IMG/VR virus record: IMGVR_UViG_2724678985_000012
Length of the DNA stretch: 64,000 nt
Source: a virus
Lineage: Duplodnaviria > Heunggongvirae > Uroviricota > Caudoviricetes
Strand: one strand, 5' to 3'
Shown here: positions 7,509 to 26,522 of the stretch, piece after piece
How positions within the stretch are numbered: the first letter of the stretch is position 1
Layout: each line of letters begins with the position of its first letter
The notes under the pieces: generated by a model
What the model saw: only the letters and a program-made list of their open reading frames with translations
Database searches by the model: none
What the model was told of the DNA's origin: nothing
Position numbers and translations under genes: made by a program

Positions 7509-7516
7509 GCTATAAT
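7489..7516 (+). promoter_or_regulatory. Sigma70-like promoter overlapping lox spacer, directed toward cre
   Basis: TTGGCA, 16-bp spacer, TATAAT. Confidence 0.4.
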
Positions 7517-10084: not shown

Positions 10085-10762
10085 ATGAATAACATGGCAA
10101 CGAAAGAGCTTTTTAAGTTCCTTCCCAAATACAAAGCTCACAAAAACGTTAGTGCATCGAAAATCAAAAATGTTGTTATTTTCGGAGTAACTGATGCCCC
10201 ACTTTGGGGCTGCATCGAACTCGTTGAACCAAAAGGGGCAACAGTTTGTGTTGACGCAATGTTTTTACAAAAACACCGACCAAAAACTGGCGGGTATCTG
10301 ATCGTTTATGAAAACGGTTATCTGTTCTATGCCCCGGAGAAACCATTTGAGGAACGCTATGGCCTGGTTAACGACGCCTCCAAAAATGGAACCACGGTCA
10401 TCATTACGGATGACAACGGCGTGATGATTAATCTTACCGGGAGCGTAACTATTTCTGCTGGTGGCATCACCACCCAGCAAGAAGAAATCGACCTTGAAGC
10501 AGCCGACTTTTCTGACGCGCTGATGTGGCTGAAGGATGGCAAGAAAGTTGCTCGACGCGGGTGGAACGGCGAAAACCAATTCTGCTGGCTGGTTCCTGAA
10601 GGACAGTACCCGGCACGAATGGAAGCCATTAAGGGATATTTCCCCGGCGACCTCGTTCCGTATGGTGCTTATTTCGCCTTAAAAAATGCACAAGGTGTAG
10701 TTGTTCCGTGGGTTCCTTCTGTAGGCGACTTACTGGCATGTGACTGGTTTGTAGTGGAGTGA
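10085..10762 (+). CDS. DUF2829-domain protein (Tad2-like fold candidate) with N-terminal extension
   Basis: 225 aa; C-terminal DFSDALMWLKDGKKVARRGWNGEN ... DLLACDW matches DUF2829 signature as recalled. Confidence 0.5.
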   Translation: MNNMATKELFKFLPKYKAHKNVSASKIKNVVIFGVTDAPLWGCIELVEPKGATVCVDAMFLQKHRPKTGGYLIVYENGYLFYAPEKPFEERYGLVNDASKNGTTVIITDDNGVMINLTGSVTISAGGITTQQEEIDLEAADFSDALMWLKDGKKVARRGWNGENQFCWLVPEGQYPARMEAIKGYFPGDLVPYGAYFALKNAQGVVVPWVPSVGDLLACDWFVVE

Positions 10763-11579: not shown

Positions 11580-11796
11580 AAATACTGGAAGCACTTTGCC
11601 TGCTACCAAGCATTCTCTGTTTAAGCACAACCATTTCCTGACGGCATAACACAGCAATAGCGGTCCTGGCGCCAATTTGCTTACCAATCAGGTATTGCTT
11701 TACCTCGCGGCGACTCACGCCATCAAGAAGCATCTTTAACGCTTCACGGGACAATTTGTTGTATCTACGTGCCATTAATCTACTCCGCGGAACCAT
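11578..11796 (-). CDS. Possible small HTH protein downstream of doc
   Basis: 72-aa ORF with HTH-like [22 protein letters not shown]; overlaps doc 3' end; weak. Confidence 0.25.
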
Positions 11797-12160
11797 ACAA
11801 TCTACGTAACGTGTCGGCGACAGAAGATACAGATATCTCTCCGGTCGCAGCCCCTACGGTAAGGTCTGCCAGTTCAGGTGAATCAAATACCTGCACCCCG
11901 TTACGGCGTAGAAATAGCAGCGCACTGTTTAGCGCGGTACGCTTATTGGCATCATTGAATATATGCCCTCTCGCCGTAGCCACCAGGTAGGTGGCGGAGA
12001 CTTCGAAAAGGTCGGTGATCTCTTCGTAGGCAACTCTGGCCTGAACTCTCCCGATAATGGCCTCTGCCCTACCCGGATCTGACATGCCCGGCAGTCCGCC
12101 GTAGCGGCTTATATTCGCATCATGAAGCGCAATAAGTTCTTCCGGTGATATATGCCTCAT
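11780..12160 (-). CDS. doc: Doc toxin (Fic-fold kinase, death on curing)
   Basis: 126 aa, essentially P1 Doc as recalled ([22 protein letters not shown]...). Confidence 0.95.
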
Positions 12161-12381
12161 TATCGGTTAACCAGTTCCTTGTTGGTGGAATCCAGAGTGT
12201 CAAACAGAGATGCAAATTCGGCATCCAGCGCCGCTTTTTTGTAGGCTTCGAAAGTAGCCTTGCTGACAATTACTGCTGGCTCACGGCCTCTGCGGGTGAT
12301 TTCAACCTCTTCCCCGGCTTCAACATTGTTGAGCACTTCAGAAAAGTTGCCGCGCGCGGTACGGAAGTTAATGGATTGCAT
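12160..12381 (-). CDS. phd: Phd antitoxin
   Basis: [12 protein letters not shown]...ELVNR matches P1 Phd; ORF track adds two N-terminal residues (to 12387); stop overlaps doc start. Confidence 0.95.
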
Positions 12382-12453
12382 AAACACCTCGTGTACTCAT
12401 TATGTGTACACAATTATAAACCTCACAGGCATAAAGCACCAGCACTTTGCAGC

Positions 12454-12830
12454 TTAAATAACCGGACAATCATCAAACTCCCCACTTCGGGCATCATTGA
12501 TGACATGAGTGATCACACCAAAAACAGCATTACTTCCCGTGCATCCATCGTCATCTACTGGTAACGCCTCTTTCTTCCCGGTGCTTAAATCCTCCAGGTG
12601 CTGGCGCGGATACTTCCTGTATCTCTTTATGCGATATTCACCCTCCATAGCGCACACAAGCAGCGAACCATCAACTGGAGTAAGCGAAGAATCAACCACC
12701 AGCATATTCCCTCACGGTGATGGCTATCAGCTGCCCGCATGAAGTAGGTTGCTGATGGATGCCTGATTAGTTGCTGATCAAGAGAAATTCGGCTTTCAAC
12801 ATAATCCGCCGCAGGAGAAGGGAAGCCCAT
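12454..12830 (-). pseudogene. humD: humD (UmuD'-like S24 peptidase) interrupted by a frameshift
   Basis: N-terminal part (FPSPAADYVE...HPSATYFMRA) in ORF 12627..12830, C-terminal part (LVVDS...GEYRIKRY...VFGVITHV) in a different frame 12454..12705; about five residues missing at the junction. Confidence 0.6.
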
Positions 12831-13099: not shown

Positions 13100-13456
13100 T
13101 TAACTCCTACATTCAGGGCAAGAGTTCCCTTCCGCAAAATAGGGGAAACTGCTATCAAGCTCATCACACCATCTGCGATGGTCGTAGCACCAAAACGCCT
13201 CCCACGGTACACGGAAATACTTCATCCACCAGGACACTCGATCAGGTATATCTGCTGGTGGCAGCTCTTCTGGCAATAATTTGCCTGATAATTCCCTTTC
13301 CGCCCGCGCCAGCATTCCTTTTAGACTCGCATTTTCTTTTTCAAGAATCTCTACGCGAGCCTGTAACTCAGCTTTCGTTGGCATGGCCCGCCTCATGTTT
13401 ATCAGCCACCAGCGGCAATAAAGCCTTAGCCATTTCATGAACCAACATGGCATCAA
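13100..13456 (-). CDS. Hypothetical protein (likely shorter, start near 13384-13396)
   Basis: 118-aa ORF overlapping upstream gene; coiled-coil segment then Cys/Trp-rich tail. Confidence 0.3.
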   Translation of the reverse strand: MMPCWFMKWLRLYCRWWLINMRRAMPTKAELQARVEILEKENASLKGMLARAERELSGKLLPEELPPADIPDRVSWWMKYFRVPWEAFWCYDHRRWCDELDSSFPYFAEGNSCPECRS

Positions 13457-14135
13457 TGACGCCTAGCGTATGGCCCGGCTTAATCTTTAATGCGGCCTCA
13501 AGATAGCCTCTTTCCAGAGTGGTTTTTACGCTTTTCCTAGGCGCTTGTTGGGAACCATCCGGAAGAACCGGATGGTTCCCAGCCTCATAAGCTACCCGCA
13601 ACCAGTGCATGAATGTTTCCGCAGACACACAACCGCAGTCCACATCGATTTCCCCGCGTTGCTGCTCCAGCCATTGCTCAAAATCTAACTTGTAAGCCTT
13701 ACTTTCAGACTTGACTTTCTGAGACGCTATGCGAGCTGCTTCATACTGTTCACGAGTGACAACCGATGTAAACGCACTGCGATCAAGGTCACTGATATCG
13801 CAAATAATGCCATCAATGGAATAATTCTTTGATGATTGGTAATTTTTATGGCGCGTACCAAAAAGAACCGTAGCGCGACTACTACCTGGCATCGTAATGG
13901 ATAGATGGCAAAAATCTTTTCCATCAGGCCATCCATGCCCCTTAGATAATTCCTTCACTAACAAGTCAATCAGTGTCATAGCTTTACCATCCTTGCAAGG
14001 CGCTAAAGCTATTTTGGCAAGTTCCAATACTTCATCTGCTGTGTATCCAGCACCGTGACCATACATTTCGATACGGGAAATAATATCTGAAATACGCTCT
14101 TTAGTGATTCTTGTCATAGTTTTATTTCCTTGCAT
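13368..14135 (-). CDS. Hypothetical protein
   Basis: 255-aa ORF in minus-strand accessory operon. Confidence 0.45.
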   Translation of the reverse strand: MQGNKTMTRITKERISDIISRIEMYGHGAGYTADEVLELAKIALAPCKDGKAMTLIDLLVKELSKGHGWPDGKDFCHLSITMPGSSRATVLFGTRHKNYQSSKNYSIDGIICDISDLDRSAFTSVVTREQYEAARIASQKVKSESKAYKLDFEQWLEQQRGEIDVDCGCVSAETFMHWLRVAYEAGNHPVLPDGSQQAPRKSVKTTLERGYLEAALKIKPGHTLGVIDAMLVHEMAKALLPLVADKHEAGHANES

Positions 14136-14323
14136 GGTTCGCCTTTACGGCAAACAGCTACACGGTCATTTCTTACATTAACCACAGTCACCGTTCCGTC
14201 ATCGCATTGAATAACGATGAAAGGGTGTTCATTCTCTTTTGTGCAATGTTGCTGTTCCCCTGCTGTAACAGTGAGGGGAATTAATAAAATAATAATTACT
14301 GCGAATTTACTAAATGTTGCCAT
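14114..14323 (-). CDS. Small secreted protein (signal peptide)
   Basis: 69 aa; N-terminal hydrophobic signal-like segment, four Cys. Confidence 0.3.
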   Translation of the reverse strand: MATFSKFAVIIILLIPLTVTAGEQQHCTKENEHPFIVIQCDDGTVTVVNVRNDRVAVCRKGEPCKEIKL

Positions 14324-14347
14324 AGCAATCTTTCTTTCTGTTTTTCA

Positions 14348-14641
14348 TTATGGTTGAATCCAGTTATCTTCAATAGCAATGCTTAATCTTTGTAACCATT
14401 CTGCTAATTTCAGCATTGCTTCTCTTTCGCTTAAACCACACGGAAAATCATCAAGCGATATTGTTGGCTTGAAGTTTCCTAAATTATCCATTTCGACGGT
14501 CAGATTTTGCTCCAGCACGGTATTTCTTACGCGGCTATTGTGCCGAAGCAAATATACTGAACGTGATTTATTGGTTTTGTGGTCGAAAGTATATTCGGTA
14601 AGTATCATCTGGCTTCCGCCATGATTATTACCGCGCCACAT
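14348..14641 (-). CDS. Hypothetical protein
   Basis: 97-aa ORF. Confidence 0.35.
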   Translation of the reverse strand: MWRGNNHGGSQMILTEYTFDHKTNKSRSVYLLRHNSRVRNTVLEQNLTVEMDNLGNFKPTISLDDFPCGLSEREAMLKLAEWLQRLSIAIEDNWIQP

Positions 14642-14664
14642 AATTACTCCGTGTTAATTGAAAT

Positions 14665-14967
14665 TTAGCTATTAATCTTCACTTTTATCGCGAACACCTT
14701 TACCGGTTTATCACCGAAGTGCGGATGTGTGATTGTTTTTATTTCATATCCGTTATACGGGACGTCAATTCTGCGACTGAAGTCTTCGCGCTTCGGATAT
14801 CCCTTTGTGATAATCAGGCGGTCATACTTACGGTTAACGAGGCGCTTATTCCAGTAGTCATTACACAGGCGATACTCTTCCGTTTTCTCCCCTCGAATCA
14901 TGGCATCGAAGTATTCACCTTTAACGGCAAGTTGCAGGTTAGCCATTACCTCACCTCCAGTCTCCAT
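14665..14967 (-). CDS. ASCH-like domain protein
   Basis: 100 aa; GEKTEEYR resembles ASCH GxKxxExR motif. Confidence 0.4.
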   Translation of the reverse strand: METGGEVMANLQLAVKGEYFDAMIRGEKTEEYRLCNDYWNKRLVNRKYDRLIITKGYPKREDFSRRIDVPYNGYEIKTITHPHFGDKPVKVFAIKVKINS

Positions 14968-15206
14968 ACCGCCTGACCAATCCGGCTGGCATGGGTATCT
15001 TTGGATACTGTTCCGTCTTTAGCCAGCTCCATAAGAATTTTGCGCAAATCTGCCGAACGCCATTCTTCATCAGGAAATTCCTTCTCCATTGCCAACCGCA
15101 GATTCCAGGTTGCCATCCTGAATGGATATTCCCCGCCGAGAGCTTTATCTTGCAGGGCAGCCCGGGAACGCATCACCTGCAAAACCTTCTCTTTTACATC
15201 CATCAT
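14946..15206 (-). CDS. Hypothetical protein
   Basis: 86-aa ORF, coupled to neighbours. Confidence 0.35.
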   Translation of the reverse strand: MMDVKEKVLQVMRSRAALQDKALGGEYPFRMATWNLRLAMEKEFPDEEWRSADLRKILMELAKDGTVSKDTHASRIGQAVWRLEVR

Positions 15207-15778
15207 TTCGCCTCCTGCGGCGGTTCCGGTAGCGGCATCCAGTGAGTTGCTTGCTCAATACCATTACCCGGCTTAATCGTTGCATCTCCGCGCCGAAAGG
15301 TGCTTCCGGTATAGCGTGCGGAGCATATTAGCGGTTCAACCAGAGAGCTATCGAAATTCACCGAAATAAGCACGTTCTGGTTCTTTTCAGGCATCCGCTC
15401 ACTACAGCTTATCCAACCATCCGGAGTTACCGGCACTGGCTGGGCGGTGTAAAGTGGAACAACTCGCCCTCCCCATTGCTTAACACTACTCTCAGCGAAC
15501 ACTAAATGCTCAGTCCGATAATACCCAGGGGCATCAATATCTTTTCTTTCGCTATCCCACATGTAAACCACCGGTTCTGCTTCCAGTGATGCCAGTGCAA
15601 TTCGTGCCAGCTCACGCACAACTTCAGGGGGCGCGTAACGGTCATTCAGGTCATCCCACAGGCGTAGCATGTTATCGCTACCAGGGTGAACATCCTCGTT
15701 AGTTCCGGCAAGCGCACTAATAACCTCATCGGCTGCTTCAATAATTTTCTGTGCCTGTTCTCTGGTAATAGTGGTCAT
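15203..15778 (-). CDS. Hypothetical protein with DUF551-like C-terminus
   Basis: 191 aa; C-terminal WISCSERMPE...THWMPLPEPP typical of lambdoid DUF551 proteins. Confidence 0.45.
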   Translation of the reverse strand: MTTITREQAQKIIEAADEVISALAGTNEDVHPGSDNMLRLWDDLNDRYAPPEVVRELARIALASLEAEPVVYMWDSERKDIDAPGYYRTEHLVFAESSVKQWGGRVVPLYTAQPVPVTPDGWISCSERMPEKNQNVLISVNFDSSLVEPLICSARYTGSTFRRGDATIKPGNGIEQATHWMPLPEPPQEAK

Positions 15779-16056
15779 TTGTTAATCCTTAAAACTTTAT
15801 GCCCTGGCGCAAAAGCACGTGTTTTGTCTTTGCTTATTCGCCAGCCATCCTTACGTGCCTCTTTTGCACAGCCAGCCCATGACGTACCGATATATTCACC
15901 GAAGTCTGGTACTGGATATACACCTTCCGTACACTGGCGGCAGTCACAATAGAGATGCATGGTGTAACTTGCGGCAATAGCCATATCACTCTCCTTTAGT
16001 ACGCAAGTGGTTTTTCCAGCGGTTTTGCGCCGCGCTGGGCTTTTTGCAAAAACCAC
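15775..16056 (-). CDS. Hypothetical Cys-rich small protein
   Basis: 93-aa ORF; competes with overlapping ORF 15986..16267. Confidence 0.3.
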   Translation of the reverse strand: MVFAKSPARRKTAGKTTCVLKESDMAIAASYTMHLYCDCRQCTEGVYPVPDFGEYIGTSWAGCAKEARKDGWRISKDKTRAFAPGHKVLRINK

Positions 16057-16160
16057 AATCCATCATCCCGTAATATTTCATCAACCCCATCCGTCGGTTG
16101 CTGAGTCTCACCCACTGCCAGACGCTAGGGGCGTTTCTACGAACTAACAGAATCTTTGCT

Positions 16161-16727
16161 TTACGGTTTTTCATCGTTTTGCTCTCCTGCGTCTCCTTTG
16201 ATGCAAATGCCAGCGACGCGTGGCACATTAACTTCCACGATGCGCACAGTTGGTTTGTACATCTCAATCGCTGTCAGCCAGTCAGCGCCGGTCATATGCT
16301 TTTCTGCATCGCCATTAGTCCATTGAACCGGCACACCAATAGCTTTCATCGCAATTTCTATTTCCCCGGCGATGGCGCTTTTTCCGCAACCAGTAAAACC
16401 AGAAACAACGACAAGAACTTCGCCTTTGGCTGGTTTTATTTCCCGTGCTTCCAGTTCTGCAATGCGCTTCTCTGCGGCTTCCAGCTCAACACGCAGCTTC
16501 CCTACCGTTAGCGCAATTTCCTCGTTCTCCTGGTCGCGGCGTTTGATGTATTGCTGGTTTCTTTCCCGTTCATCCAACAATGCCAGCGCGATATCTGGCG
16601 AAAAGTGCTTCATAAAATCGTTAAGCGCATTAATTCGCTGATCGAAAGGCATTACAGGTGCTTCACCAGCAATTTTTGTTTTTTCAGCGATTTCACGAAG
16701 TTTTTGATAGTCAATTTTGTTTGTCAT
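16161..16727 (-). CDS. Ead/Ea22-like coiled-coil protein
   Basis: 188 aa; coiled coil ELEAAEKRIAELEAR shared with two paralogs downstream. Confidence 0.45.
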   Translation of the reverse strand: MTNKIDYQKLREIAEKTKIAGEAPVMPFDQRINALNDFMKHFSPDIALALLDERERNQQYIKRRDQENEEIALTVGKLRVELEAAEKRIAELEAREIKPAKGEVLVVVSGFTGCGKSAIAGEIEIAMKAIGVPVQWTNGDAEKHMTGADWLTAIEMYKPTVRIVEVNVPRVAGICIKGDAGEQNDEKP

Positions 16728-17602
16728 ACCACTACCTCTTCGAATTTCAACTCCAATTGGTCACCCCAGATTTCACATGATTCGGAACACGAACCAGTAT
16801 CAAACCGCTTGGCCTGCACCATCGCCTGATACAAATTTCTGTAGTCGCTGTCGGCATACATTCTGGCAATCCCGTCAAGCGTCAGGTGACCACGGTACAT
16901 AACGTCTTTACCTGTTCTGCGATGACCATCCCTGACGTGTTTGCCTGTAACCAGTTCATTAAAAACCCGCATCAGACCAGGTTCGTCTTTACATGCAAGC
17001 CCCAGCTTTTGCGTTGACTTTTTGATGCAAAAAACACAGTTCCCGAGGTGCTCCGGGATTTGCAAATCAAAAGGTTGTTTTCGCCACCACCGAATAACAT
17101 CCGACTTATCAAAATCTGACAGTTCTGCAAGATACCGGACGCCCGGTTTCGGTTTCAGCCTACGGTGTTCGTCCGCACGAATACCCAGCCATGTGATGTA
17201 ATTCCCTCGCCCAAAATGGTCATCGCAATATTTCGTGAAAGGGGTGAGTTTTAGCCTGTCAGTACAGAACGCGCCGCCGATGTAAGGCGTACCGTACTTT
17301 TTAACCATGTCCATAAACGGTTTAAGCACCGGCATTCGCGTCTGAATATCCTTTGGTTCCCATTCCGTATAACCATTTGGCTGCCCAAGTTCTGGATTTA
17401 TATCGACCTGCAACACCGTTAGCGGTACGTTCCAGAACTTCACAACCTCACGAATAAAGCGATACGTCAGAGGATGTTCACAGCCGGTATCCATAAAAAT
17501 GAAATGGACGCTAGCGCCAGCTTTTCGCTGTGCTTCCATCAGATGAACGAGATAAGCCGATGTTCGTCCACCTGAAAAGCTGACAACTTGATGCATACTC
17601 AC
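16724..17602 (-). CDS. PAPS reductase-like (PP-loop ATP pyrophosphatase family) protein
   Basis: 292 aa; N-terminal SFSGGRTS PP-loop motif; common lambdoid accessory gene. Confidence 0.7.
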   Translation of the reverse strand: MSMHQVVSFSGGRTSAYLVHLMEAQRKAGASVHFIFMDTGCEHPLTYRFIREVVKFWNVPLTVLQVDINPELGQPNGYTEWEPKDIQTRMPVLKPFMDMVKKYGTPYIGGAFCTDRLKLTPFTKYCDDHFGRGNYITWLGIRADEHRRLKPKPGVRYLAELSDFDKSDVIRWWRKQPFDLQIPEHLGNCVFCIKKSTQKLGLACKDEPGLMRVFNELVTGKHVRDGHRRTGKDVMYRGHLTLDGIARMYADSDYRNLYQAMVQAKRFDTGSCSESCEIWGDQLELKFEEVVV

Positions 17603-17605
17603 GGT

Positions 17606-18298
17606 TTATTCCTGAACGCGCTTAAACTCGATTACCCATACCCACGGGTTAGATAGCCAGTTATCCTGCCCGTAAATACTGCGCCAGATATCACCAAAAC
17701 CAACGCGATAAACAGCTTCCGGCGGCGTAATTTTGTACATCGCCGGAGATGCGCCTTCTGCTTTAGCATCTGCCTCGCTCATATCACGCAGCCGTTCCAC
17801 ACGCACGTCGGTAATTTCCAGCAAAATACGCGAAGCCCAGCGCGGCATGTGAATTGATGGACGCCACCCGCCATCAAACTTTTCATTCACAGTGTGAGGT
17901 TTCCAGTCGACATCATCGGGTATCGACCACAAACCGTAATCACCAGGCTTTTGCTCACAACTGGCCCGATAAATCCTTGCTGCGTTCTTCTCATCGCCAC
18001 GACAAAGGTTGTCGTTCCAGTCCACACTGCAACCATCCTCATTGCCTAATATCGCCCACGCCTCACGGACCCATATGCGATCACCAACGTTACCGAACGG
18101 GCATAAACCATGTTCAGGTGCATCCATAACGTGGGTATAGACACCATTGCGTTTCTTTGTCGGTTTACGGATAACTAGGCAGTTATCGGCCCTGACATTT
18201 TTTACAGGTCGGCGAGTCTGCGTCTTCCTTCCTTCGAGGATGGCCCTGACCATCTCATCGTTAAAAATCATCCCGCGTTCTTTCATTTTTTGATCCAC
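17606..18298 (-). CDS. ASCH-like domain protein
   Basis: 230 aa; N-terminal ILEGRKTQTRR motif. Confidence 0.4.
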   Translation of the reverse strand: MDQKMKERGMIFNDEMVRAILEGRKTQTRRPVKNVRADNCLVIRKPTKKRNGVYTHVMDAPEHGLCPFGNVGDRIWVREAWAILGNEDGCSVDWNDNLCRGDEKNAARIYRASCEQKPGDYGLWSIPDDVDWKPHTVNEKFDGGWRPSIHMPRWASRILLEITDVRVERLRDMSEADAKAEGASPAMYKITPPEAVYRVGFGDIWRSIYGQDNWLSNPWVWVIEFKRVQE

Positions 18299-18302
18299 CT
18301 CA

Positions 18303-19298
18303 TCAGTTATTGAACGTGATCACTCCGCGCTCGATGGCGAAGTCAAAAAGCTGGTTAGCGGCTACGTAAAGGCGTATGCCATGTGCTTTTTCCCATGCCC
18401 GAACATCGTTTTCTGCGCTTCTGGCGCAGTCATCGCAAAGAGGAACAGCCCAGCGGTCGTGTTCGTTTAACGAGCGGGCGCGGTACATGAACGGGTGGTT
18501 AACTTTGCCACCGCATCCGATGCACGGACGAGAAACCACAAACCGGAGATAAGCCGGGCTTTTACCGAGGACCGCTTTTGGTCGGCGCATATAAAGCAGG
18601 CCGGAATCCTCATCTACAGACAGGTTGACGATCTGCTCTGCGGTTATGTCCACCAGCTCGCGGGTACTGTGCTCCCAGGTGATATCTGATTCTTTCAGCG
18701 TACCGGTAGGGATTTCAGTTTTTGGCTGACAAAATGCAATGCGACCAGCTTCATCAGGCAGTTCGTCTTTAAGATTCCGGCGAATGGCCCAAAAGGTGAG
18801 TTCAACCATGCTCAGATCGCGATCCGGCGGAAGTTTTAACTCGCTGGCAGCCCAGTTCATAATCCAGTTGGCGCGATTCCGTGACAGTTGGTCTTCCAGC
18901 TTGCCGTATCCCTTCATCATGTATTCCGCATCATGCTTCCAGCACAGGCGAACGGCAGAACCGTTATAGAAATGGGTGGTTAGCTGGTGGCTGCAATCGC
19001 GCTTATCATGCGCCTGGCAATCGTGAATGTTGGTGCTAACCCAGTGAACGAGAGAATCCTCACCACCTAACGCGTTAAATACACGCTCACTTTGAAAAAA
19101 GGGTGCCAGTGACTGGTTGGCAACCAGTGAATAATTCAGGTCAACGACACCATCAGGGGTGTTTTCAGCCTGTTCACGCGGCAATGGGGATATAAGAAAA
19201 CGGCGTCCTGCGCCGATGTAATTGCTGGTGGGCTTATCTACAGGAAAGACAGCCACACCAGTTTCATTTACGACATATGGGGTGATTATTGCACTCAT
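18303..19298 (-). CDS. DUF968-like Cys-rich prophage protein
   Basis: 331 aa; C-terminal CIGCGG...CDDC cluster typical of lambdoid nin-region proteins. Confidence 0.45.
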   Translation of the reverse strand: MSAIITPYVVNETGVAVFPVDKPTSNYIGAGRRFLISPLPREQAENTPDGVVDLNYSLVANQSLAPFFQSERVFNALGGEDSLVHWVSTNIHDCQAHDKRDCSHQLTTHFYNGSAVRLCWKHDAEYMMKGYGKLEDQLSRNRANWIMNWAASELKLPPDRDLSMVELTFWAIRRNLKDELPDEAGRIAFCQPKTEIPTGTLKESDITWEHSTRELVDITAEQIVNLSVDEDSGLLYMRRPKAVLGKSPAYLRFVVSRPCIGCGGKVNHPFMYRARSLNEHDRWAVPLCDDCARSAENDVRAWEKAHGIRLYVAANQLFDFAIERGVITFNN

Positions 19299-19340
19299 AA
19301 TGCATACCGACTCTGTTTTGTTCCGATCGGTAAAATAATA

Positions 19341-19355
19341 TGTTAGAAAACTAAA
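19341..19355 (-). promoter_or_regulatory. C1-type operator-like site (reverse orientation)
   Basis: TGTTAGAAAACTAAA, exact reverse complement of the motif; second partial copy at 19361-19368; upstream of minus-strand operon starting 19298. Confidence 0.5.
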
Positions 19356-19396
19356 ATCAATGTTCTAACGTGATTTTGAGTGCGTAAATGATTTGA

Positions 19397-20089
19397 TCAG
19401 ACTTTAAGCTGCCCTCCCTTCACCTGCATTAGCGTCAGATTTCCGCAAAAAACCGCGCCCGTGTCTATGTAGTGCTGATTCCAGTATGCTTTTGGTCTTC
19501 GTACCGGTGTGTGCCCAAAGATAAAGCGATCTGCGCCTGTGATTTCTCCACCAATGCCATCTATCGAATCACCGACGCGACTGCGCGACCAGACAACATC
19601 AAAAAGCGACACATCCTTACCGAACTGGTACTCTCCACCTGGATAGTCGGCATGGGCTATAACGATAGTTTCATGCCCGGCGTTCAACTCAATGATATAT
19701 GGCAGACGCTTTACCAGCTCCACCAGCGCCTTGGCTAATATTTCCTGATCAGTGTCCAGCATGAAGAACCATTGTCCGCCATTCATTAGCCAGTTATTCA
19801 CGTTGCCATCAGGACTTAACGCATCAAGCATCAACCGCTCATGGTTCCCCATTACTGCCCTGAACCAGGGCATCTGCAATAGTTCCAGACATTCGACATT
19901 TTCAGTACCGCGATCGATAAGGTCGCCAACCGATATCAGTAAATCCTGCGCCGGGTCAAAATCCACACGATGGAGTTCGGACATCAGTCTGGTGTAGCAA
20001 CCATGCAGATCACCAACAACCCATATGTTTCTATAGCCAGAACCATCAATACGGCTATATAAATTCACTTCATGCAGAGCCTGGGTCAT
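19397..20089 (-). CDS. Ser/Thr protein phosphatase (lambda NinI / PrpA-like metallophosphatase)
   Basis: 230 aa; GDLHG, GDLIDRG, GNHE motifs. Confidence 0.8.
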
Positions 20090-20397
20090 GCGGCAACCTT
20101 CTCACGCAGCCAGATACAAACCGGACCATCTTCAGTGTCATGAATAGAGCCAACAAACCAGCCTTCACCCTCTGGTCGCTCCGGTTCCCAGGCGGCAATA
20201 TCGGGACCAGCTGCGTCCAGATCAAAATCATCTTCATCCATACTGCGAATAGTCCACTGAAGATTATTTTCCTTCATCCAGGCGTCAAATTCCTCAGTGG
20301 AAATATATTCACGACCTGCGCAAAACTTCTCATACTCCGGATGTGTCCAGCAGCCATATTCATCACGTTCTACCGGCATTTCTTTAATGATGCTCAC
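20086..20397 (-). CDS. Hypothetical protein
   Basis: 103-aa ORF coupled to neighbours. Confidence 0.4.
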
Positions 20398-20618
20398 TCT
20401 TCATCCTCCAAGTCGGCAACGGCCTCCATCACATCAGAACCGCGAATAACCTCAAAAGCACGGCAGGCCATTTCAAACACCTGTTGTTCTTGCGGATGCG
20501 GTGACTCCCAATACTTAAAACCAGGTCGATGCTCGTAACCCATCATGGAATAAAAATCGCCAGCAAGTTCAATCGCGGCATCAACAAGTTCGCGATTTGT
20601 CATCGTCTGTTCTGTCAT
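20394..20618 (-). CDS. Hypothetical small acidic protein
   Basis: 74-aa ORF. Confidence 0.4.
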   Translation of the reverse strand: MTEQTMTNRELVDAAIELAGDFYSMMGYEHRPGFKYWESPHPQEQQVFEMACRAFEVIRGSDVMEAVADLEDEE

Positions 20619-20890
20619 TTGGTTTTCTCCTGTCTGAACATCACTATCATCAGGTCGCCTTTTGTCGCTATTCTGGCTGTTGTGCCTGGTTCAATGCGGC
20701 TAAGCTCAAATGCGTCATAGAACGCTTCTAATGCCTTCTGGCGTAGTTCCTGTTTGCGCCGTTTTTTCCACTCTTTTAGGAAAATGGAACCCAGCCATCG
20801 CCAGGTACGGGACATGATGTAAAGCCAACCGAAAAGTGCCAGACCGGTATTTAGGGCCGTATCGATTGTTATCGTGGTGTCGATATTCAC
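20615..20890 (-). CDS. Hypothetical small membrane protein
   Basis: 91 aa with one TM-like segment. Confidence 0.4.
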   Translation of the reverse strand: MNIDTTITIDTALNTGLALFGWLYIMSRTWRWLGSIFLKEWKKRRKQELRQKALEAFYDAFELSRIEPGTTARIATKGDLMIVMFRQEKTK

Positions 20891-21135
20891 TGTGGTGGCT
20901 CCTGCTTTTCTGCCTTCAATACCATGCGAGAACCATCATCCAGCTCCCAATTAATTTCACCGCCTTCAGCCATGACTAGATGCCAAACGAGTTGTGCGGC
21001 CTCGTTGGTTACATCACGACCGCGATCATTGCCGACACGACGTTTTGTTCCATCCCCTAAGTCACGCATTTTTGCCAACACGATGGTTTTTGATAGCGGT
21101 GAAAAACCAAGCTGTAGTCGTGCGGAATTACTCAC
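20887..21135 (-). CDS. Hypothetical protein
   Basis: 82-aa ORF. Confidence 0.4.
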   Translation of the reverse strand: MSNSARLQLGFSPLSKTIVLAKMRDLGDGTKRRVGNDRGRDVTNEAAQLVWHLVMAEGGEINWELDDGSRMVLKAEKQEPPQ

Positions 21136-21896
21136 TGTTTGCCTCCTTTTCCAAGCTGGGCGGCGATATCTTCGAGAACGCCATCAGAGAATGAGCGGTC
21201 AAAATCGCCTTCCGGCGCATTAGCCATAAACTCAGTAGAGGTAAGAATCATCCGGGCAATATCCGCGGCGTTCTTCGCAGTATCATCAATAAAACCAGCT
21301 TCCCAGGCAGCCAGCATTCTGTTCGCCACAAAGTAAGCGCCCTCCTTGCGTGCTTCAGTCTTCACTTCAGCCAGGAAAGCATCGGTGGCTGGTGTTTGCG
21401 GCATCCCTCCATCTGTTGCGCAGATATACGCATCAGATATTTCATCCTGCTCGCCATCAAACACGTAGCAACTCTGTGCGATGAATTTATTCAGCCCCGC
21501 ATTCTCCGCCGCCAGCGCCGCGCGATTACCCTCCAGCTCTGCAATGCGCTGTTTTGCGGTATCAAGTTCAATCGATAATTTTTCCAACTGCTCTTTATGC
21601 TTCTTGTATTCCTGATATGCGTGCCAGGACTGACCTTTGCGCACACTATCAGTAATATCAGTAATCTGTTCTGGTGTTAGCGTAGTCAGTGGCTGTGCTG
21701 GGAAAATCAGCACTTTCCCGGAATCCCAATCAAAACCAGCGTGAATTGACTGAACCTCAACTGAGGGTGTTGAACCAATGCTGCCAGGCGAATGAACAAC
21801 GATCGTTACATCCATATCGCGACGATGGCTGTGGTTGTTGGACAAAATACGATTCACCAACTCAGAAAATTTGGAGAATTTCATGCGGAGCCTCAA
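21132..21896 (-). CDS. Ead/Ea22-like protein
   Basis: 254 aa; coiled coil plus C-terminal TPATDAFLAE motif shared with ORF 22300..22788. Confidence 0.45.
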   Translation of the reverse strand: MRLRMKFSKFSELVNRILSNNHSHRRDMDVTIVVHSPGSIGSTPSVEVQSIHAGFDWDSGKVLIFPAQPLTTLTPEQITDITDSVRKGQSWHAYQEYKKHKEQLEKLSIELDTAKQRIAELEGNRAALAAENAGLNKFIAQSCYVFDGEQDEISDAYICATDGGMPQTPATDAFLAEVKTEARKEGAYFVANRMLAAWEAGFIDDTAKNAADIARMILTSTEFMANAPEGDFDRSFSDGVLEDIAAQLGKGGKQ

Positions 21897-22336
21897 TATG
21901 CAAAATAGACCGTTGCCACGCCGTTATAGTGATCAAACGATACGGCGTTTACTTCATAGCTGGCAGGGAGCTTCGAGCCGAGAACATATCCGGGCCACGT
22001 TTTCCATGGAATTTCTCTACTCTCACTATCCCCATATACCGTACATCCAAGTGAACCTACAGCCTCGTCAGAACGTTTGCCGCATGTTATGAAACCTATA
22101 TTTTTCTTGCCGGTCTTAATGGCGATTGGGTGAACACTGGCTGATGCATTGGCAGCACGCTGTGACTGTTGGTTTGCGATATTCGCAGAGTTCGCAGCAG
22201 CTACAGCAGCCGTGGTCGCGGCGGTAGATGCCACAATAACTGCTGAAGCCTGCGCCTGTTGGGTAATGGTCAGCAATGCCGCCACAAAAATCATCCTCTT
22301 CACTTGCCAGCTCCTTTGCGAATCTGTTCCGCCCAT
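21893..22336 (-). CDS. Secreted protein (signal peptide)
   Basis: 147 aa; MIFVAALLTITQQAQASA signal-like segment. Confidence 0.4.
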   Translation of the reverse strand: MGGTDSQRSWQVKRMIFVAALLTITQQAQASAVIVASTAATTAAVAAANSANIANQQSQRAANASASVHPIAIKTGKKNIGFITCGKRSDEAVGSLGCTVYGDSESREIPWKTWPGYVLGSKLPASYEVNAVSFDHYNGVATVYFAY

Positions 22337-22788
22337 TCTTCAAGGGATTTCTCCGCATATTCACCAGACAGGCCATCAATCGGATGCGCTTCATTAGCCA
22401 ACTCTTCTTTCGCTGACAAAATCATGCGTGTAACGTCGAAAACTTCACGCAAAGACTTATTGATAAATCCGTGATTGAACGCAGCAGCAAGACGGCTTGC
22501 GGTATAGTTAATCCCCTCGTTGCGAGCCGCCGCACGAATTTCAGCCAGAAAAGCATCGGTGGCTGGAGTTTCGCTGTGGTGCAGGGCATCGTTGATAATC
22601 ATTGCAGCAACTCCGGCCTGCCCTGCATCCGTGACCGACACATGCTCAAGAGTTACAGCCATTGCATGTTTCAGCCCAGCATTCTCCGCCGCTAGCGCAG
22701 CACACGCTTTCTCAAGTCGGGAAATTTCCGTTACATACTCAGCGTTACGCTCTGCCAGTTGTGCGGGCGTTAAACCTTCAGACTTCAT
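22300..22788 (-). CDS. Ead/Ea22-like protein (paralog)
   Basis: 162 aa; shares coiled coil and TPATDAFLAE C-terminal block with 21132..21896. Confidence 0.45.
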   Translation of the reverse strand: MKSEGLTPAQLAERNAEYVTEISRLEKACAALAAENAGLKHAMAVTLEHVSVTDAGQAGVAAMIINDALHHSETPATDAFLAEIRAAARNEGINYTASRLAAAFNHGFINKSLREVFDVTRMILSAKEELANEAHPIDGLSGEYAEKSLEEWAEQIRKGAGK

Positions 22789-23095
22789 ACACTCTCCTTT
22801 CGAAATAAACGTACTGATTAATCATGCCCAGGGGCATTTCGAGTTTTTCCGCGATCTCACGGCGGGGAACACCACACTGATGAAGCTGCCGTGCCAGTTC
22901 TATATCGCTCTGCCGGTATTTGGCTGACGGATGAAAGTCTCCTTTCAGAATCATGCTGATCCCCAACTCCCGCGCTTTAGTCCTGACGGCATCACCGGTA
23001 CGACCGATCAGCTTCCCAATACTCTCGACCGTCATAGTTCCGGCGCACTGGCGGAGTATCATGATTTCTGCCCTTCCCCATCCCCGCCAGCTCAC
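22778..23095 (-). CDS. Putative small HTH DNA-binding protein
   Basis: 105 aa with HTH-like segments. Confidence 0.4.
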   Translation of the reverse strand: MSWRGWGRAEIMILRQCAGTMTVESIGKLIGRTGDAVRTKARELGISMILKGDFHPSAKYRQSDIELARQLHQCGVPRREIAEKLEMPLGMINQYVYFERRVYEV

Positions 23096-23730
23096 GCAGA
23101 ACTCCTTCTAACCAAAAGAACGCCATCTTCAGAAACAACGTTGCAGGACTTCAGGTAATTCATTGCCTCTTTCGGTAATGGATTCTTTGGATCGGCGTTT
23201 GCCAGGGATTTCGATAACCTCATGATAAATTTGATCATTACCTTCTGGCGGAGCTTGTGCTCATGAGATAAAGAAAGGTAATAGGAAATGGTATGGGCTA
23301 AACGCTCACGAAGCTGTTCTGTGCCGTGATATACAGCAGCGATATCACGCAGTGCATTGACCAGTTCCCGGTAAATATGTGGAGCAACCTGGCATTCAAT
23401 GTTGGTTGGTGACTCATAAATTACAGTCAGCCCCAGCTTTTCAGCCAGCGCGTGCTCTGCACGAGCACCAACCGATTCTTCCCATCGATTGAGCAAATAG
23501 ATCGCATCAGCAGAACGCACCATTGCCAGGCAAATATCCATGTATTCACTCTGGCAAAGGCCACCAGGTAACACCGCTGGATTCAGAACGATATGCCCTT
23601 CAGCCATCAGCTCGATCGCTTTCGCATTAAACGCCGCACGGTTGTAATCTGGATAACCAGTCATCGGCCCCGCGATGTAAATTTTCAAAACACGTTTCAC
23701 CATCAAAATTTCCCCAAAATCGTGACGCAA
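23092..23730 (-). CDS. DUF4406-like (nucleoside deoxyribosyltransferase-fold) protein
   Basis: 212 aa; N-terminal KIYIAGPMTG...NPAV pattern. Confidence 0.45.
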   Translation of the reverse strand: MRHDFGEILMVKRVLKIYIAGPMTGYPDYNRAAFNAKAIELMAEGHIVLNPAVLPGGLCQSEYMDICLAMVRSADAIYLLNRWEESVGARAEHALAEKLGLTVIYESPTNIECQVAPHIYRELVNALRDIAAVYHGTEQLRERLAHTISYYLSLSHEHKLRQKVMIKFIMRLSKSLANADPKNPLPKEAMNYLKSCNVVSEDGVLLVRRSSA

Positions 23731-23975
23731 AACATAAGCACTGCGAAAAGCTCAATACCAAGTTCAAGTAGCGCCAACGCCCCGAAAAACAACACATAGA
23801 ACAGGCCAATCTCATTCACAGATGGCTGGTGGATCGCACTTAAAGCTATAAGCATCATGTCCTCCAAACAGTTATCAGGAATGATATTAATGTTTTGTAT
23901 TAGAAAATCAATTTTGAATATCTAACCATTTTGATCAATCATAGAAAAATCGCTGAAAAGTAAGAGGCTGCCATC

Positions 23976-24554
23976 ATGCAGAAACAGAGCTATTGGGAGA
24001 AACAGAGACAAAAAGCCATGCAAAAATTGGCTGACCCGGCCTGGCGAGAGGAACAAAGGGCAAAGCGCCTTCAACAAGCTCAACGCCAGCAGCAGCGAGC
24101 GAGAGAAAAAGCCGCATCGCCTGAATATCGGCAAAAAAAAATTGAAAAAGCAAAGCAATATGACCAGCGGAGAAAAGAGAAAGCTGTATCCGCTCCGTCC
24201 AAAAAAACACGCACGTCACGCGGCCTGAAGGGCAGATCACTCACAGCCGATGAACGCCGGATACAGACCGCTATCGGTACTCTCCCCTGCATTGCCTGCC
24301 ATATTCACGGGAAACATAGCCCAGTGGTATCCCTGCACCATATCTTCGGGAGAACGGCAGAGAACGCACATAAATATGTCCTCCCTTTGTGTAAATGGCA
24401 CCACCAGTACGCAGCGCCAGCCGAGGTCCGAGAACAATATCCCTGGCTGGTCCCTGTTCATGCTGATGGAAAAATAGGCGGAAAAGCAGATTTCATACGG
24501 CACAATGCCGATGAAATGGCGTTGTATCAGATGGCGATTGAATTGATAAATTAG
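23976..24554 (+). CDS. ref: Ref recombination enhancement function, HNH endonuclease
   Basis: 192 aa; C-terminal GLKGR..ERRI...LPCIAC..HG...VSLHH..GRTA....LPLC.WHHQ.AAPAEVRE.YPWLVPVHADG matches P1 Ref. Confidence 0.85.
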   Translation: MQKQSYWEKQRQKAMQKLADPAWREEQRAKRLQQAQRQQQRAREKAASPEYRQKKIEKAKQYDQRRKEKAVSAPSKKTRTSRGLKGRSLTADERRIQTAIGTLPCIACHIHGKHSPVVSLHHIFGRTAENAHKYVLPLCKWHHQYAAPAEVREQYPWLVPVHADGKIGGKADFIRHNADEMALYQMAIELIN

Positions 24555-24565
24555 TTTTCTAACAT
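24551..24565 (+). promoter_or_regulatory. C1-type operator-like site
   Basis: TTAGTTTTCTAACAT exact; degenerate copy upstream of ref at 23896-23911. Confidence 0.5.
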
Positions 24566-24885
24566 TTTAAGTTGAATTGTGAATTTCCCCGATGTACATT
24601 CACTACCGATTGGTACACCGGTCAACTTTTTGAGACAAACTGTTTAGTTTTTCGTATTATTGCCGCCGCCATACCTATGGCGGTGCAATATAGGTGGCTG
24701 AAAAGCCCCCGTTGACTCACGGTGTTCCAGCCTTTATTGCGCCGCCACCAGACCGTGGAACAGTCGATGGCGGCTCCGAAAGCAAGGAGTCACTACACTA
24801 TGAACAACTACAGTCTTTTCCCATCACTCGTCGTCCACCACTCACGCGATAATCTGCATTCTTTACTCGCGCCGGGGGTGTCAAA

Positions 24886-25053: not shown

Positions 25054-25156
25054 AATACTGACTGTTGCGCCCTGGCATTATCGTGGGGTATATTTCTACG
25101 GCACCTTAGAAAAACGGGTGCCGGGATTGGAACCCCGGATAATGTCAAAGGCGACA

Positions 25157-25180
25157 CAGACGCCGAAAGCGTCTTTTTTT
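25157..25180 (+). terminator. Rho-independent terminator
   Basis: GACGC-cgaaa-GCGTC followed by T7 run. Confidence 0.75.
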
Positions 25181-25365
25181 GTGTCACGCCATCGCACAGC
25201 CATACGTAGCGTTTAGCTCAGAGATCAATGGTAGTGCTGGCTGGGCTGCCGAAAGGCAGGCCGGTTCCCTTTGACGCCGGTAGTTCCAACCCAGTCAGTG
25301 CTACCGCCATTGAGATTGGAACCTCACGCGGTAGCTCCTTAACTTAGTCAAAGGAGGCTGCCAAT

Positions 25366-25581
25366 ATGGCTACTATCCCTACCCCAACTCATTCTGAATT
25401 TATCTGGCGTTTCTATTCCTGCCAAAAACACCTGTATATCTGCGTCATGGCTGCTACCGAAGCAGAGGCGCGCTCATACCTTCCCGAAGAACCCTGCATT
25501 TTTGCTGCTCGCTTCACTCTTGATGCGATGGAGATCCTCAATTACTGGAATCTGCCGATGAACTGCGTGGAGGTGCACTGA
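25366..25581 (+). CDS. Icd-like (host cell division inhibitor) small protein
   Basis: 71 aa starting MATIPTPTHSEF with EAEAR...FAARF pattern recalled for Icd-like proteins; AGGAGG RBS. Confidence 0.5.
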   Translation: MATIPTPTHSEFIWRFYSCQKHLYICVMAATEAEARSYLPEEPCIFAARFTLDAMEILNYWNLPMNCVEVH

Positions 25582-26522
25582 TGAATCTGTCCATCTCTCA
25601 AAAAGCGACAATGACCAGTATTGAGATCGCGGAACTGGTGGGAAGTCGTCACTCTGATGTTAAACGCAGCATCGAAAGACTTGTTGCTAAAGGAGTTATC
25701 CAACATACGCCATTGGCTACAGTTGAGAATAATCAATCACTTAGCCCTAATAAATACACAAAAGCCTATTTCTTCGAAGGCGAACAAGGCAAGCGCGATA
25801 GTATTGTCGTCGTCGCGCAGCTCTCTCCCGAATTCACCGCCCGGCTGGTGGACCGCTGGCGCGAATTGGAGAATGCCCGGGTACAGTTAAAATCAAAAGC
25901 CGAAATTCTGGCTGAAATGGCGCAAATGCATCTTGAACATGAACGCCGGATCAACGCCGTAAATGCCCAGGTAGCCGAGGTATCGGCACAAGTGTCCAGG
26001 GTCGCTGAAACCGTTGAGCAAATCAAGAAAGGCAATATGCCGGAAGGCTACATTGGCTACCGCCAGCTGGCGGCAAAATGCGGCCTGACCGAAGCCAAAT
26101 GTCGCAACCTGGTCAACGCTTACCGGATTCCCACCGATACGCATGAGTTTTTAACTCCCGATGGTTTGCTTGCGCGACGCTCCATTGTGGCCCTGGCCCC
26201 CTTCCGGAAAGCCTTTAAGCAGGTGATGTCGGAGGCAGAACCACGCAATAAACGCTGGTATCATCCAAAGATGGGGATGTTTCAGGCAATCAACCATCCT
26301 GTGCCTGAAAGCCCAAAGGATAATCTGTCACTACATACCGCCAGAGAGAAGATCAGGACTGGATACGCAACAGTGTGTCGTCGTTCTTCCTGGCCTGAAG
26401 GTATATGGGTGTGGCCCGAAGGTGGATCACGAAAGCACTGGCGCACTATCCGGGATGGGAAAATCCATGCTATTGATTTAGCTCCAGAGGATGTTGTTGC
26501 TACGGACTGGATTGTTAGTTAA
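25581..26522 (+). CDS. Rha-family phage regulatory protein (possible antirepressor)
   Basis: 313 aa; N-terminal MTSIEIAELVGSRHSDVKRSIERL typical of Rha domain; coupled to icd-like ORF. Confidence 0.6.
   Translation: MNLSISQKATMTSIEIAELVGSRHSDVKRSIERLVAKGVIQHTPLATVENNQSLSPNKYTKAYFFEGEQGKRDSIVVVAQLSPEFTARLVDRWRELENARVQLKSKAEILAEMAQMHLEHERRINAVNAQVAEVSAQVSRVAETVEQIKKGNMPEGYIGYRQLAAKCGLTEAKCRNLVNAYRIPTDTHEFLTPDGLLARRSIVALAPFRKAFKQVMSEAEPRNKRWYHPKMGMFQAINHPVPESPKDNLSLHTAREKIRTGYATVCRRSSWPEGIWVWPEGGSRKHWRTIRDGKIHAIDLAPEDVVATDWIVS

Follow-up and report, generated by a model that had tools for sequence, protein, structure and literature searches.

The closest described counterparts of the locus studied here belong to phages P1 and D6. 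In P1, the operons pmgN-pmgO-pmgP-ppp-pmgQ (Oppp/Op83), pmgR-pmgS-pap (Op86a,b), and pmgT-pmgU-pmgV (Op88) have the same relative location and are directed toward hot/humD/phd/doc, and the repressor operators overlap the sigma-70 promoters that head successive operons, as is predicted for the block described below. In the P1 record this equivalent region carries Oppp, OpmgRa/b, and OpmgT as annotated C1 operators, with transcription likewise toward humD. The genome of phage D6 was described by Gilcrease and Casjens (2018, as cited in PMC6799933). Its orf88–orf105 region (NC_050154 / MF356679) has the same position, strand, and scaffold genes as our block, with both operator sites conserved, and the notes of the record itself name as relatives phiV10, 933W, ES18, mEp213, and N15, together with P1 ppp, pdcB, and pmgU. 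The nin and ea/b regions of lambdoid phages (lambda, Stx phages, phiV10) are likewise made of dense small ORFs with stop/start overlaps, and have mosaic joints at short conserved sequences. The block that we describe is very likely the early accessory region that D6-type plasmid prophages (P1 supercluster) normally have, ordinary and already recorded in public genomes, and not a foreign insertion.

The window, i.e., the whole 64,000-nucleotide stretch analyzed, is collinear with phage D6 for about 50 kb, with 97–98% identity outside the block and conserved order (blastn). Between a humD pseudogene and ref, 24 closely packed minus-strand ORFs run without interruption from about 23855 to 13100. 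The sequence-only reading had recognized this minus-strand block, placing it at 13100–23730; the right edge was drawn too short, since the small hydrophobic ORF at 23703–23855 and a second operator/promoter region (23884–23916) belong to it too. At the left flank, a 13-bp deletion relative to P1 near 12703 splits the frame of the humD pseudogene (12454–12830, minus strand), and the P1 homology runs on to 13079, taking in, by P1 coordinates, the LexA site and the start of lxr. Compared to D6, the window lacks hot and its humD is frameshifted. At the right flank, and divergent from the block, there is a ref-like RecA-dependent nuclease gene (23976–24554, plus strand; PF16786, E 1.5e-34, and D6 annotation). 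The neighbor here is ref, and not tail genes as in P1, because the backbone of D6 is arranged differently from that of P1.

Domain calls refer to Pfam matches above the gathering score. The phosphatase, DUF968, PAPS-reductase-like, DUF551, and DUF4406 assignments of the sequence-only reading all pass at this level, with DUF4752 and DUF7446 as additional calls. All of the genes that follow are on the minus strand. The predicted first gene of the upstream operon is the small hydrophobic ORF (23703–23855, 50 aa), a homologue of D6 orf88 with 100% amino acid identity to D6 and 71–100% in other D6-type elements. It is followed by a DUF4406 protein (23092–23730; PF14359, E 3e-33; 77–99% amino acid identity in 7/7 D6-type elements) and by a 105-aa putative HTH DNA-binding protein (22778–23095; 90–100% in 7/7 relatives) that has weak matches only, to HTH/sigma-70 region 4, and whose homologues PGAP labels "DNA-binding protein." Next come two Ea22-type modular proteins, paralog B (22300–22788) and the 254-aa paralog A (21132–21896, with repeats D1 and D4). 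Between them lies a variable cassette encoding a 147-aa protein (21893–22336; 136 aa as annotated in relatives; phrog_8805, unknown function), with a hydrophobic, signal-peptide-like N-terminus in its translation, which is found at 97% identity or more in three of the seven sampled D6-type elements, at 53% in a fourth, and is missing from the other three. A stretch of four small ORFs (20086–21135) comprises a variable DUF7446 ORF (20887–21135) and three scaffold genes, namely a DUF4752 ORF (20615–20890), a 74-aa ORF (20394–20618), and a 103-aa ORF (20086–20397). Finally, ppp (19397–20089) encodes a Ser/Thr protein phosphatase of the lambda-PP/NinI type (PF00149, Metallophos) present in all D6-type elements.

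The downstream operon appears to have as its first gene that of a DUF968/HNH-type Cys-rich protein (18303–19298; PF06147, E 6e-45), a scaffold gene with 95–98% amino acid identity in all relatives. Beyond it, variable cassettes predominate: a PmgT homologue (17606–18298), a NinC-type PAPS-reductase-like protein (16724–17602; PF01507) found in three of the seven D6-type elements, and, after an Ead/Ea22 family protein (16161–16727), ORFs of 62 and 69 aa (15775–16174), DUF551 (15203–15778), eaa (14946–15206), a small ASCH-like ORF (14665–14967), a 97-aa ORF (14348–14641), and a 69-aa ORF with a signal-peptide-like start (14114–14323), assigned from Pfam, PHROGs, and the conservation matrix. The cassettes in 14114–16174 show nucleotide identity to phiV10, PA2, and the P1-type phage MH422554. 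The last two genes of the block are a 255-aa ORF (13368–14135) whose C-terminal end derives from pmgU, as seen by nucleotide and amino acid comparison and PHROGs, and a 94-aa ORF (13100–13384; phrog_3797). Two proteins had been read as ASCH-like, which is borne out only in part: both remain below the Pfam gathering threshold for ASCH (PF04266, 21.2 bits), with E 0.004 (18.3 bits) and E 0.053 (14.7 bits), and the larger (17606–18298) is really the PmgT homologue. PGAP calls close homologues of the small ORF at 14665–14967 ASCH.

The D6-type comparison set consists of seven elements, phage D6 and six plasmids, and all of them (D6 and 6/6 plasmids sampled) are organized alike in the interval from humD/phd-doc to ref, the block being on the strand directed toward humD. 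A conserved scaffold (the small TM ORF, DUF4406, HTH, DUF4752, two small ORFs, Ppp, and DUF968) is present in 7/7 at 71–100% amino acid identity, and ref is also found in all seven, while the remaining block ORFs vary (per-ORF matrix). Compared to D6, conserved and replaced segments alternate within the block (blastn). D6 aligns to 48% of the block, with 93.5% nucleotide identity (94% in the stretch 18301–20892), and three segments (13516–15775, 16719–18301, and 20892–22531) have been replaced, bringing in NinC, PmgT-like, DUF551, eaa, ASCH-like, DUF7446, and Ea22-type genes different from those of D6. The D6-like plasmid CP057047 matches 95% of the block at 97.7%. In a wider plasmid search 966 plasmids match the block, eight of them covering at least 80% of it at 96–98% identity.

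The Ea22-type genes illustrate this mosaicism. Three Ead/Ea22 paralogs had been proposed, of which only the 16161–16727 protein scores high enough in Pfam (PF13935, E 1e-19, 71.6 bits where 27 are required), while paralogs A and B have only a coiled-coil stretch in common with it and gave no Pfam Ead_Ea22 match even at E values up to 5. PGAP names some homologues of these two ORFs ead/Ea22-like. Paralogs A and B fall in the same PHROG families and, as had been noticed, share a C-terminal block (87 residues, 41% identity, E 2e-19), as well as an AALAAENAGL coiled-coil patch. The further suggestion that this C-terminal block could mediate recombination fares worse, since the longest exact DNA match between the two genes is 17 bp, making recombination between them within the element unlikely to be efficient. 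Paralog B is itself mosaic, with an N-terminal part similar to D6 orf92 and a C-terminal part similar to phiV10 p46, and the joint coincides with another patch common to both paralogs (TPATDAFLAE, 22540–22571).

Both halves of the block are preceded by candidate control regions. The internal one (19332–19374, minus strand) contains the 15-mer TGTTAGAAAACTAAA at 19341–19355, which has three exact copies and one with a single mismatch in the window, where 10 matches at up to three mismatches are found versus 2.6 expected. A weaker inverted partner (19352–19374) scores 14.8 with the weight matrix, at the boundary of the null (maximum 12–15), and together with the 15-mer forms GTTAGAA-N14-TTCTAAC. 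The upstream region (23884–23916, minus strand), divergent from ref, has an operator-like site scanned at 23894–23916, with the core TATTAGAAAATCAAT at 23898–23912. This site, which lay outside the training set, scores 20.4, whereas the null reaches about 12–15 at most. The internal region is conserved in 7/7 relatives and the upstream site is kept as TGTTAGAAAATCAAT in 7/7, although these relatives are so close (about 90–98% identity) that conservation alone says little. Each site coincides with a predicted leftward sigma-70-like promoter: the internal one would sit in the spacer (-35 TTGATT 19360–19355, 17-nt spacer, -10 TATTTT 19337–19332), and the upstream one would overlap its promoter (-35 TTGATT 23911–23906, 16-nt spacer, -10 TAATAT 23889–23884). 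Both promoters were read by eye and have 8/12 consensus matches, below the threshold of nine of the strict scan, which thus did not report them.

The strong copies of the motif are all intergenic, upstream of c1 (7275–7297), lpa (2842–2864), ref (23894–23916), c4-icd-ant in the immI region (24546–24568), hrdC-methylase (dmt/hrdC, 36023–36060), and the DUF968 gene in the ppp region (19337–19359). They correspond to P1 Oc1, Olpa, Oref (which in P1 also lies upstream of ref), Odmt, and Oppp, and a C4 RNA (25224–25311) is located just downstream of the site that follows ref. Since the motif recurs where P1 has its C1 operators, the reiterated 15-mer is probably the operator of a D6-type repressor, with the consensus TGTTAGAAAAYTAAW. 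The candidate repressor gene (6228–7265) encodes a distant C1 homologue (21% identity to P1 C1 over 240 aa, E 2e-8), whose counterpart D6 annotates as "similar to P1 gene C1." The proposal of a C1-type operator at 19341–19355 is right in that a repeated operator-like site precedes the DUF968 gene, and wrong as to the P1 sequence type: the P1 operator consensus ATTGCTCTAATAAATTT has no match at up to three mismatches in the 64 kb, while the same search finds five sites in a 21-kb P1-type locus.

We consider it very likely that the block is native to a D6-type plasmid prophage, serving as its early accessory region under repressor control and exchanging cassettes with lambdoid prophages. It would form two back-to-back leftward operons (about 23855–19397 and 19298–13100), each headed by a sigma-70-like promoter overlapped by a putative D6-type operator. 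In the lysogen, the D6-type C1 repressor would sit on both sites and keep the block silent, and upon induction or infection both promoters would fire, with the genes expressed early. The predicted products (the Ppp phosphatase, a PdcB-like HNH protein, NinC, PmgT-like, Ea22-type, and small membrane or secreted proteins) may have roles in host takeover or accessory roles. However, some of those that have a signal-peptide-like or membrane segment may just as well be exclusion functions expressed in the lysogen from unrecognized promoters. As to its evolution, cassettes interspersed in a conserved scaffold would have been replaced piecemeal by recombination with lambdoid prophages residing in the same enterobacteria, in some cases within genes, at short conserved patches.

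An alternative makes the 15-mer a promoter element or the target of a different regulator, such as a host factor or the 105-aa HTH protein encoded in the block; the block would then be independent of immunity, for instance like lysogenic-conversion "moron" genes. This alternative seems improbable to us. The missing match to the P1 operator consensus speaks for it, as does the membrane-bound or secreted appearance of several products, often seen in exclusion-type morons. Nevertheless, the sites have gene-for-gene equivalents among the annotated C1 operators of P1 (c1, lpa, ref, dmt/hrdC, and the ppp region), and one of them precedes the start codon of c1 by 14 bp. The motif is also distinct from the late-promoter box of the P1 type, its core can be aligned with TCTAA, the core of the P1 operator, and a changed operator specificity is to be expected of a repressor so distant from P1 C1.

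In the sequence-only reading, about 11 kb of lambdoid nin/ea genes had entered a P1-like backbone as one module, and the insertion brought them under P1-type immunity control. We regard this as very improbable. The lambdoid affinity of the cassettes, as judged from their sequences, is genuine, just as that reading maintained. Lambda has homologues of NinC (80% amino acid identity, E 3e-167), NinI (62%, E 1e-94), and Ea22 (47%, E 1e-22; tblastn), patches with 83–97% nucleotide identity are found in Stx phage PA2 and phiV10 (92% to PA2 in the NinC-type gene, 16724–17602), and of 5426 complete E. coli genomes, 3739 carry parts of the block, at 7345 chromosomal places. An insertion would also agree with the operator-like site inside the block and with the absence of most block genes from canonical P1 (per-ORF matrix). 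However, the lambdoid-like pieces are scattered patches of 200–900 bp, and no single lambdoid phage accounts for more than about 15% of the block. No flanking direct or inverted repeats or att-like duplication pairing its two edges were found in a repeat search, nor recombinase or transposase domains among the ORFs scanned (Pfam, PHROGs), nor a shift in GC or composition across it. Close relatives should lack an inserted island at this site, whereas every D6-type element examined has the scaffold there. That reading had named the same gene set at this position in canonical P1-like genomes as evidence against itself, and by this standard it falls. Its statement that none of these genes is part of the P1 core also fails, as the block holds homologues of ppp (88% amino acid identity), pmgT (67% to residues 1–232, E 2e-107), and pdcB (39% over the full length, E 3e-78), and the pmgU-derived fragment at its left end. 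Since the same kind of block is found in D6-type relatives and P1 already has ppp under Oppp, immunity control would be ancestral to the P1/D6 group rather than newly acquired by this element. What had been flagged is partly confirmed and its interpretation partly supported. Hardly credible is a late or morphogenetic region driven by Lpa-dependent late promoters, as the pmg (putative morphogenetic) names of the P1 homologues in the equivalent region and the nearby P1 late promoter LPhot might suggest, given that none of three late-promoter box sequences (those of P1, which may not be D6-type) has an exact match in the block, that its phosphatase, NinC, Ea22, and DUF968 content is typical of lambdoid early/accessory regions, and that operator-like sites stand ahead of both halves.

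The native early accessory region that we favor would be the positional and regulatory counterpart of the C1-controlled pmgN-ppp-pmgQ, pmgR-pap, and pmgT-pmgV operons of P1. Both regions have ppp, pmgT, and a pmgU fragment in common, pdcB being located elsewhere in P1, and they differ in operator sequence, repressor, and most other genes. Compared to lambda, nin-type and ea-type genes are intermixed here, and the lambda order and context (ren-nin-Q, int-xis-ea-exo) are missing: the block is flanked by humD/phd-doc and ref instead of lying between the replication genes and Q, or between int/xis and exo. Its anatomy also points to control by a C1-type repressor and its operators, versus the N/Q antitermination from pL/pR that operates in lambda.

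The element in the window is a D6-type plasmid prophage and not P1. About 50 kb of its backbone is collinear with phage D6, a P1-related plasmid prophage, at 97–98% nucleotide identity, and its repressor (6228–7265) is just 21% identical to P1 C1. D6 carries an equivalent minus-strand block (orf88–orf105) between hot/humD and ref, and its GenBank record notes genes resembling those of phiV10, 933W, ES18, mEp213 and N15, plus P1 ppp, pdcB and pmgU. Outside the block, small breaks relative to D6 at 10146–10382, 26562 and 30720–31262, in an alignment otherwise 96–98% identical, indicate further minor replacements or indels of the backbone. A tRNA with a CAT anticodon (1333–1408, plus strand), reported as Met by ARAGORN, lies by collinearity beside the homologue of tciB, the place of trnI (tRNA-Ile2, CAT) in P1; the D6 RefSeq record has no feature in the corresponding gap (D6 5630–6278).

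ORF calling gave 24 closely packed and often overlapping ORFs in the block, which are all encoded by the minus strand from 13100 to ~23855. It is flanked on the left by humD (12454–12830) and, beyond it, phd-doc (11780–12387), and on the right by a divergent gene for a ref-type RecA-dependent nuclease (23976–24554). humD is split into two ORFs by a 13-bp deletion near 12703 compared to P1 and plasmid CP057047 (in which the gene is intact), which makes it a pseudogene unless the assembly is in error here; hot, found in D6 and several relatives, is missing from the window. The domain labels of the sequence-only reading were mostly upheld by Pfam, namely Metallophos (the phosphatase Ppp, 19397–20089), DUF968 (18303–19298), PAPS-reductase-like (16724–17602), DUF551 (15203–15778) and DUF4406 (23092–23730), all on the minus strand; DUF4752 and DUF7446, previously unnamed, are also present. 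Two proteins labelled ASCH-like both fell under the Pfam threshold, also at relaxed E-value. Of three supposed Ea22 paralogs, one passes as Ead/Ea22 in Pfam (16161–16727, minus strand), while the other two (21132–21896 and 22300–22788) gave no Ead_Ea22 match at relaxed E-value, yet form a genuine pair (see below). NCBIfam returned no meaningful match for ten unassigned ORFs, and PHROGs placed each ORF in a known phage family, every one of them labelled "unknown function". A solid biochemical assignment is available for the phosphatase alone, from its homology to lambda-PP. Three small minus-strand ORFs (14114–14323, 21893–22336, and 23703–23855), all in PHROG or D6 families without an assigned function, contain hydrophobic, signal-peptide-like or transmembrane segments and are candidates for envelope-acting functions, e.g., superinfection exclusion.

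The observation of a block with lambdoid affinities was largely correct, but its reading as an insertion of non-P1 genes was not. Lambda homologues of the block proteins include NinC (80% amino acid identity), NinI (62%), and Ea22 (47%), and the Stx phage PA2 and phiV10 have patches of 200–900 bp in common with it at 83–97% nucleotide identity; no lambdoid phage covering more than ~15% of the block was found. Among 5426 complete E. coli genomes, 3739 contain pieces of it, at 7345 places on chromosomes and 979 on plasmids; at least 80% of the block is found in only three of them, all with ~92 kb plasmids. The sharing with lambdoid phages is real and consists of piecemeal mosaic exchange, in agreement with the ~30% of genes recently exchanged in P1-like phage-plasmids (PMC10879196). 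A single insertion is contradicted by the presence of the same architecture in all seven D6-type elements compared (D6 and six plasmids, one of them from Salmonella), by the P1 homologues within the block and by the lack of insertion marks. We looked for a signature of transposition or integration and found none: there were no flanking repeats at the block edges, no recombinase or transposase domains among its ORFs in Pfam and no composition shift across it, its negative GC skew being due to minus-strand coding. In a megablast search 966 plasmids matched the block, eight of them covering at least 80% at 96–98% identity and CP057047 reaching 95% at 97.7%. Per-ORF tblastn separated a scaffold found in all seven elements (small transmembrane ORF, DUF4406, HTH protein, DUF4752, two small ORFs, Ppp, DUF968, a terminal 94-aa ORF, and Ref) from variable cassettes (NinC-type PAPS reductase, present in three of the seven, PmgT-like, DUF551, eaa, ASCH-like, DUF7446, and Ea22-type genes). 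Compared to D6, three segments are swapped (13516–15775, 16719–18301, and 20892–22531). The block is the element's own, an ordinary feature of D6-type plasmid prophages that public genomes already record, and it illustrates how small early genes form a common pool of P1/D6 plasmid prophages and integrated lambdoid prophages.

The earlier statement that none of these genes is part of the P1 core is incorrect. Ppp has 88% identity to its P1 namesake and the 230-aa "ASCH-like" protein 67% to PmgT of P1 (E 2e-107); the DUF968 protein is homologous to P1 PdcB over its full length (39%, E 3e-78), and a pmgU-derived stretch lies at the left end. MH422554, a P1-type phage from infant faeces, has four of the block cassettes (97-aa, ASCH-like, eaa, and 62-aa) at 97–100% amino acid identity in the equivalent place (5989–8404 of that genome, between the pmgT region and hot/humD), showing that both lineages, P1 and D6, draw on one circulating pool of cassettes.

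The genuine pair of Ea22-type genes (21132–21896 and 22300–22788) falls in common PHROG families, and their products are related over a C-terminal stretch of 87 residues (41% identity, E 2e-19). This conserved block had been suggested to mediate recombination. At the DNA level they share only two 32-bp patches (91–94% identity), encoding TPATDAFLAE and AALAAENAGL. RecA-dependent recombination usually needs ~23–27 bp of identity, and the longest exact run here is 17 bp, so efficient homologous recombination between the two within the element is unlikely. The TPATDAFLAE patch of the second gene (22540–22571) is exactly where D6-like (22531 upward) and phiV10-like (22311–22567) homology overlap, which suggests that short conserved patches of this kind have served as joints in the evolutionary reshuffling of these modular genes.

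A C1-type operator had been proposed at 19341–19355. No match to the P1 C1 operator consensus was found in the window with up to three mismatches, ruling out an operator of P1 sequence, but the 15-mer at that place, TGTTAGAAAACTAAA, is reiterated beyond expectation, with exact copies at 7279–7293, 19341–19355, and 45957–45971, a one-mismatch copy at 24550–24564, and ten matches with up to three mismatches against 2.6 expected. A weight matrix trained on seven sites (null maximum ~12–15) recovered copies outside its training set at 23894–23916 (score 20.4) and 36038–36060 (22.1). Operator-like sites stand upstream of c1 (14 bp from its start codon) and of lpa, directly after cre, in the gap between block and ref, directly after ref (24546–24568), upstream of the hrdC-like/DNA methyltransferase operon (36023–36060, an overlapping inverted pair, TGTTAGATAATTAAT / TGTTAGAAAATACAT), upstream of a D6 orf52 homologue and upstream of the DUF968 gene. 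A late-promoter (Lpa) box was rejected, the motif differing from that of P1. A search of full-text literature for the motif sequence matched only unrelated primers. Given the reiteration, the P1-like placement of the sites and a core that can be aligned to TCTAA, the core of the P1 operator, we infer that the motif is the D6-type C1 operator. Both block operators are kept in all seven relatives, which are close, so that this conservation is weak evidence. The block/ref gap of the window has one strong copy and one degenerate (23909–23931, score 9.1), and the same intergenic region of the more divergent D6-type plasmid NZ_LR890273 (16522–16551) has two full inverted copies. To the right, ref is adjoined by an immI-type immunity locus behind the site at 24546–24568, made up of an isrK-like Hfq-binding sRNA (25101–25179, 62.7 bits), the C4 antisense RNA (25224–25311, 77.1 bits), both on the plus strand by Rfam, and, directly downstream of them, icd-ant (25366–26522).

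Two operator regions, rather than a single one, belong to the block. Read by eye, each comes with a putative minus-strand promoter, TTGATT-17-TATTTT (19360–19332), with the operator in its spacer, and TTGATT-16-TAATAT (23911–23884), whose −35 is overlapped by the operator. Both match 8 of 12 consensus positions, under the threshold of the strict sigma-70 scan, which gave no minus-strand promoter in either gap. Beside the anatomy, homologies, conservation pattern and motif distribution established by the analysis, a scheme of control can be proposed: in a lysogen D6-type C1 would repress both promoters, and upon induction or infection both operons would be expressed early, their products serving accessory or host-directed functions.

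The corrected reading of the window (D6-type rather than P1-type, a native block, two putative operator-bearing promoter regions and four genes with P1 homologues) has small significance beyond correct annotation. The sole new product, and mildly so, is the inferred operator consensus and regulon, which could aid annotation of immunity regulons in many D6-like plasmids of E. coli and Salmonella. It seems reasonably probable that TGTTAGAAAAYTAAW, sometimes as inverted pairs, is the D6-type C1 operator, in a regulon with some eight sites that mirrors the one of P1 promoter by promoter (c1, lpa, ref, c4-icd-ant, hrdC-dmt, and ppp-region operons) although the repressor is only distantly related and the operator sequence has changed. 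If so, the entire mosaic block would belong to this regulon, and we would have a clean case of repressor and operator co-changing specificity on a fixed regulatory architecture, leading to heteroimmunity. The annotated P1 operators Oc1, Olpa, Oref, Odmt, and Oppp stand at genes corresponding to the window sites, and the inverted pair, the counterpart of Odmt, resembles the bivalent operators of P1. At the position equivalent to the block, canonical P1 has the successive operons pmgN-pmgO-pmgP-ppp-pmgQ, pmgR-pmgS-pap, and pmgT-pmgU-pmgV, all running toward hot/humD/phd/doc and each with an annotated C1 operator at its head (Oppp/Op83, OpmgRa,b/Op86, and OpmgT/Op88, respectively). An annotation in the P1 record gives 64% identity between ppp and the lambda phosphatase, and with this gene lying behind Oppp, C1 control of a lambda-type gene is of long standing in the phage group.
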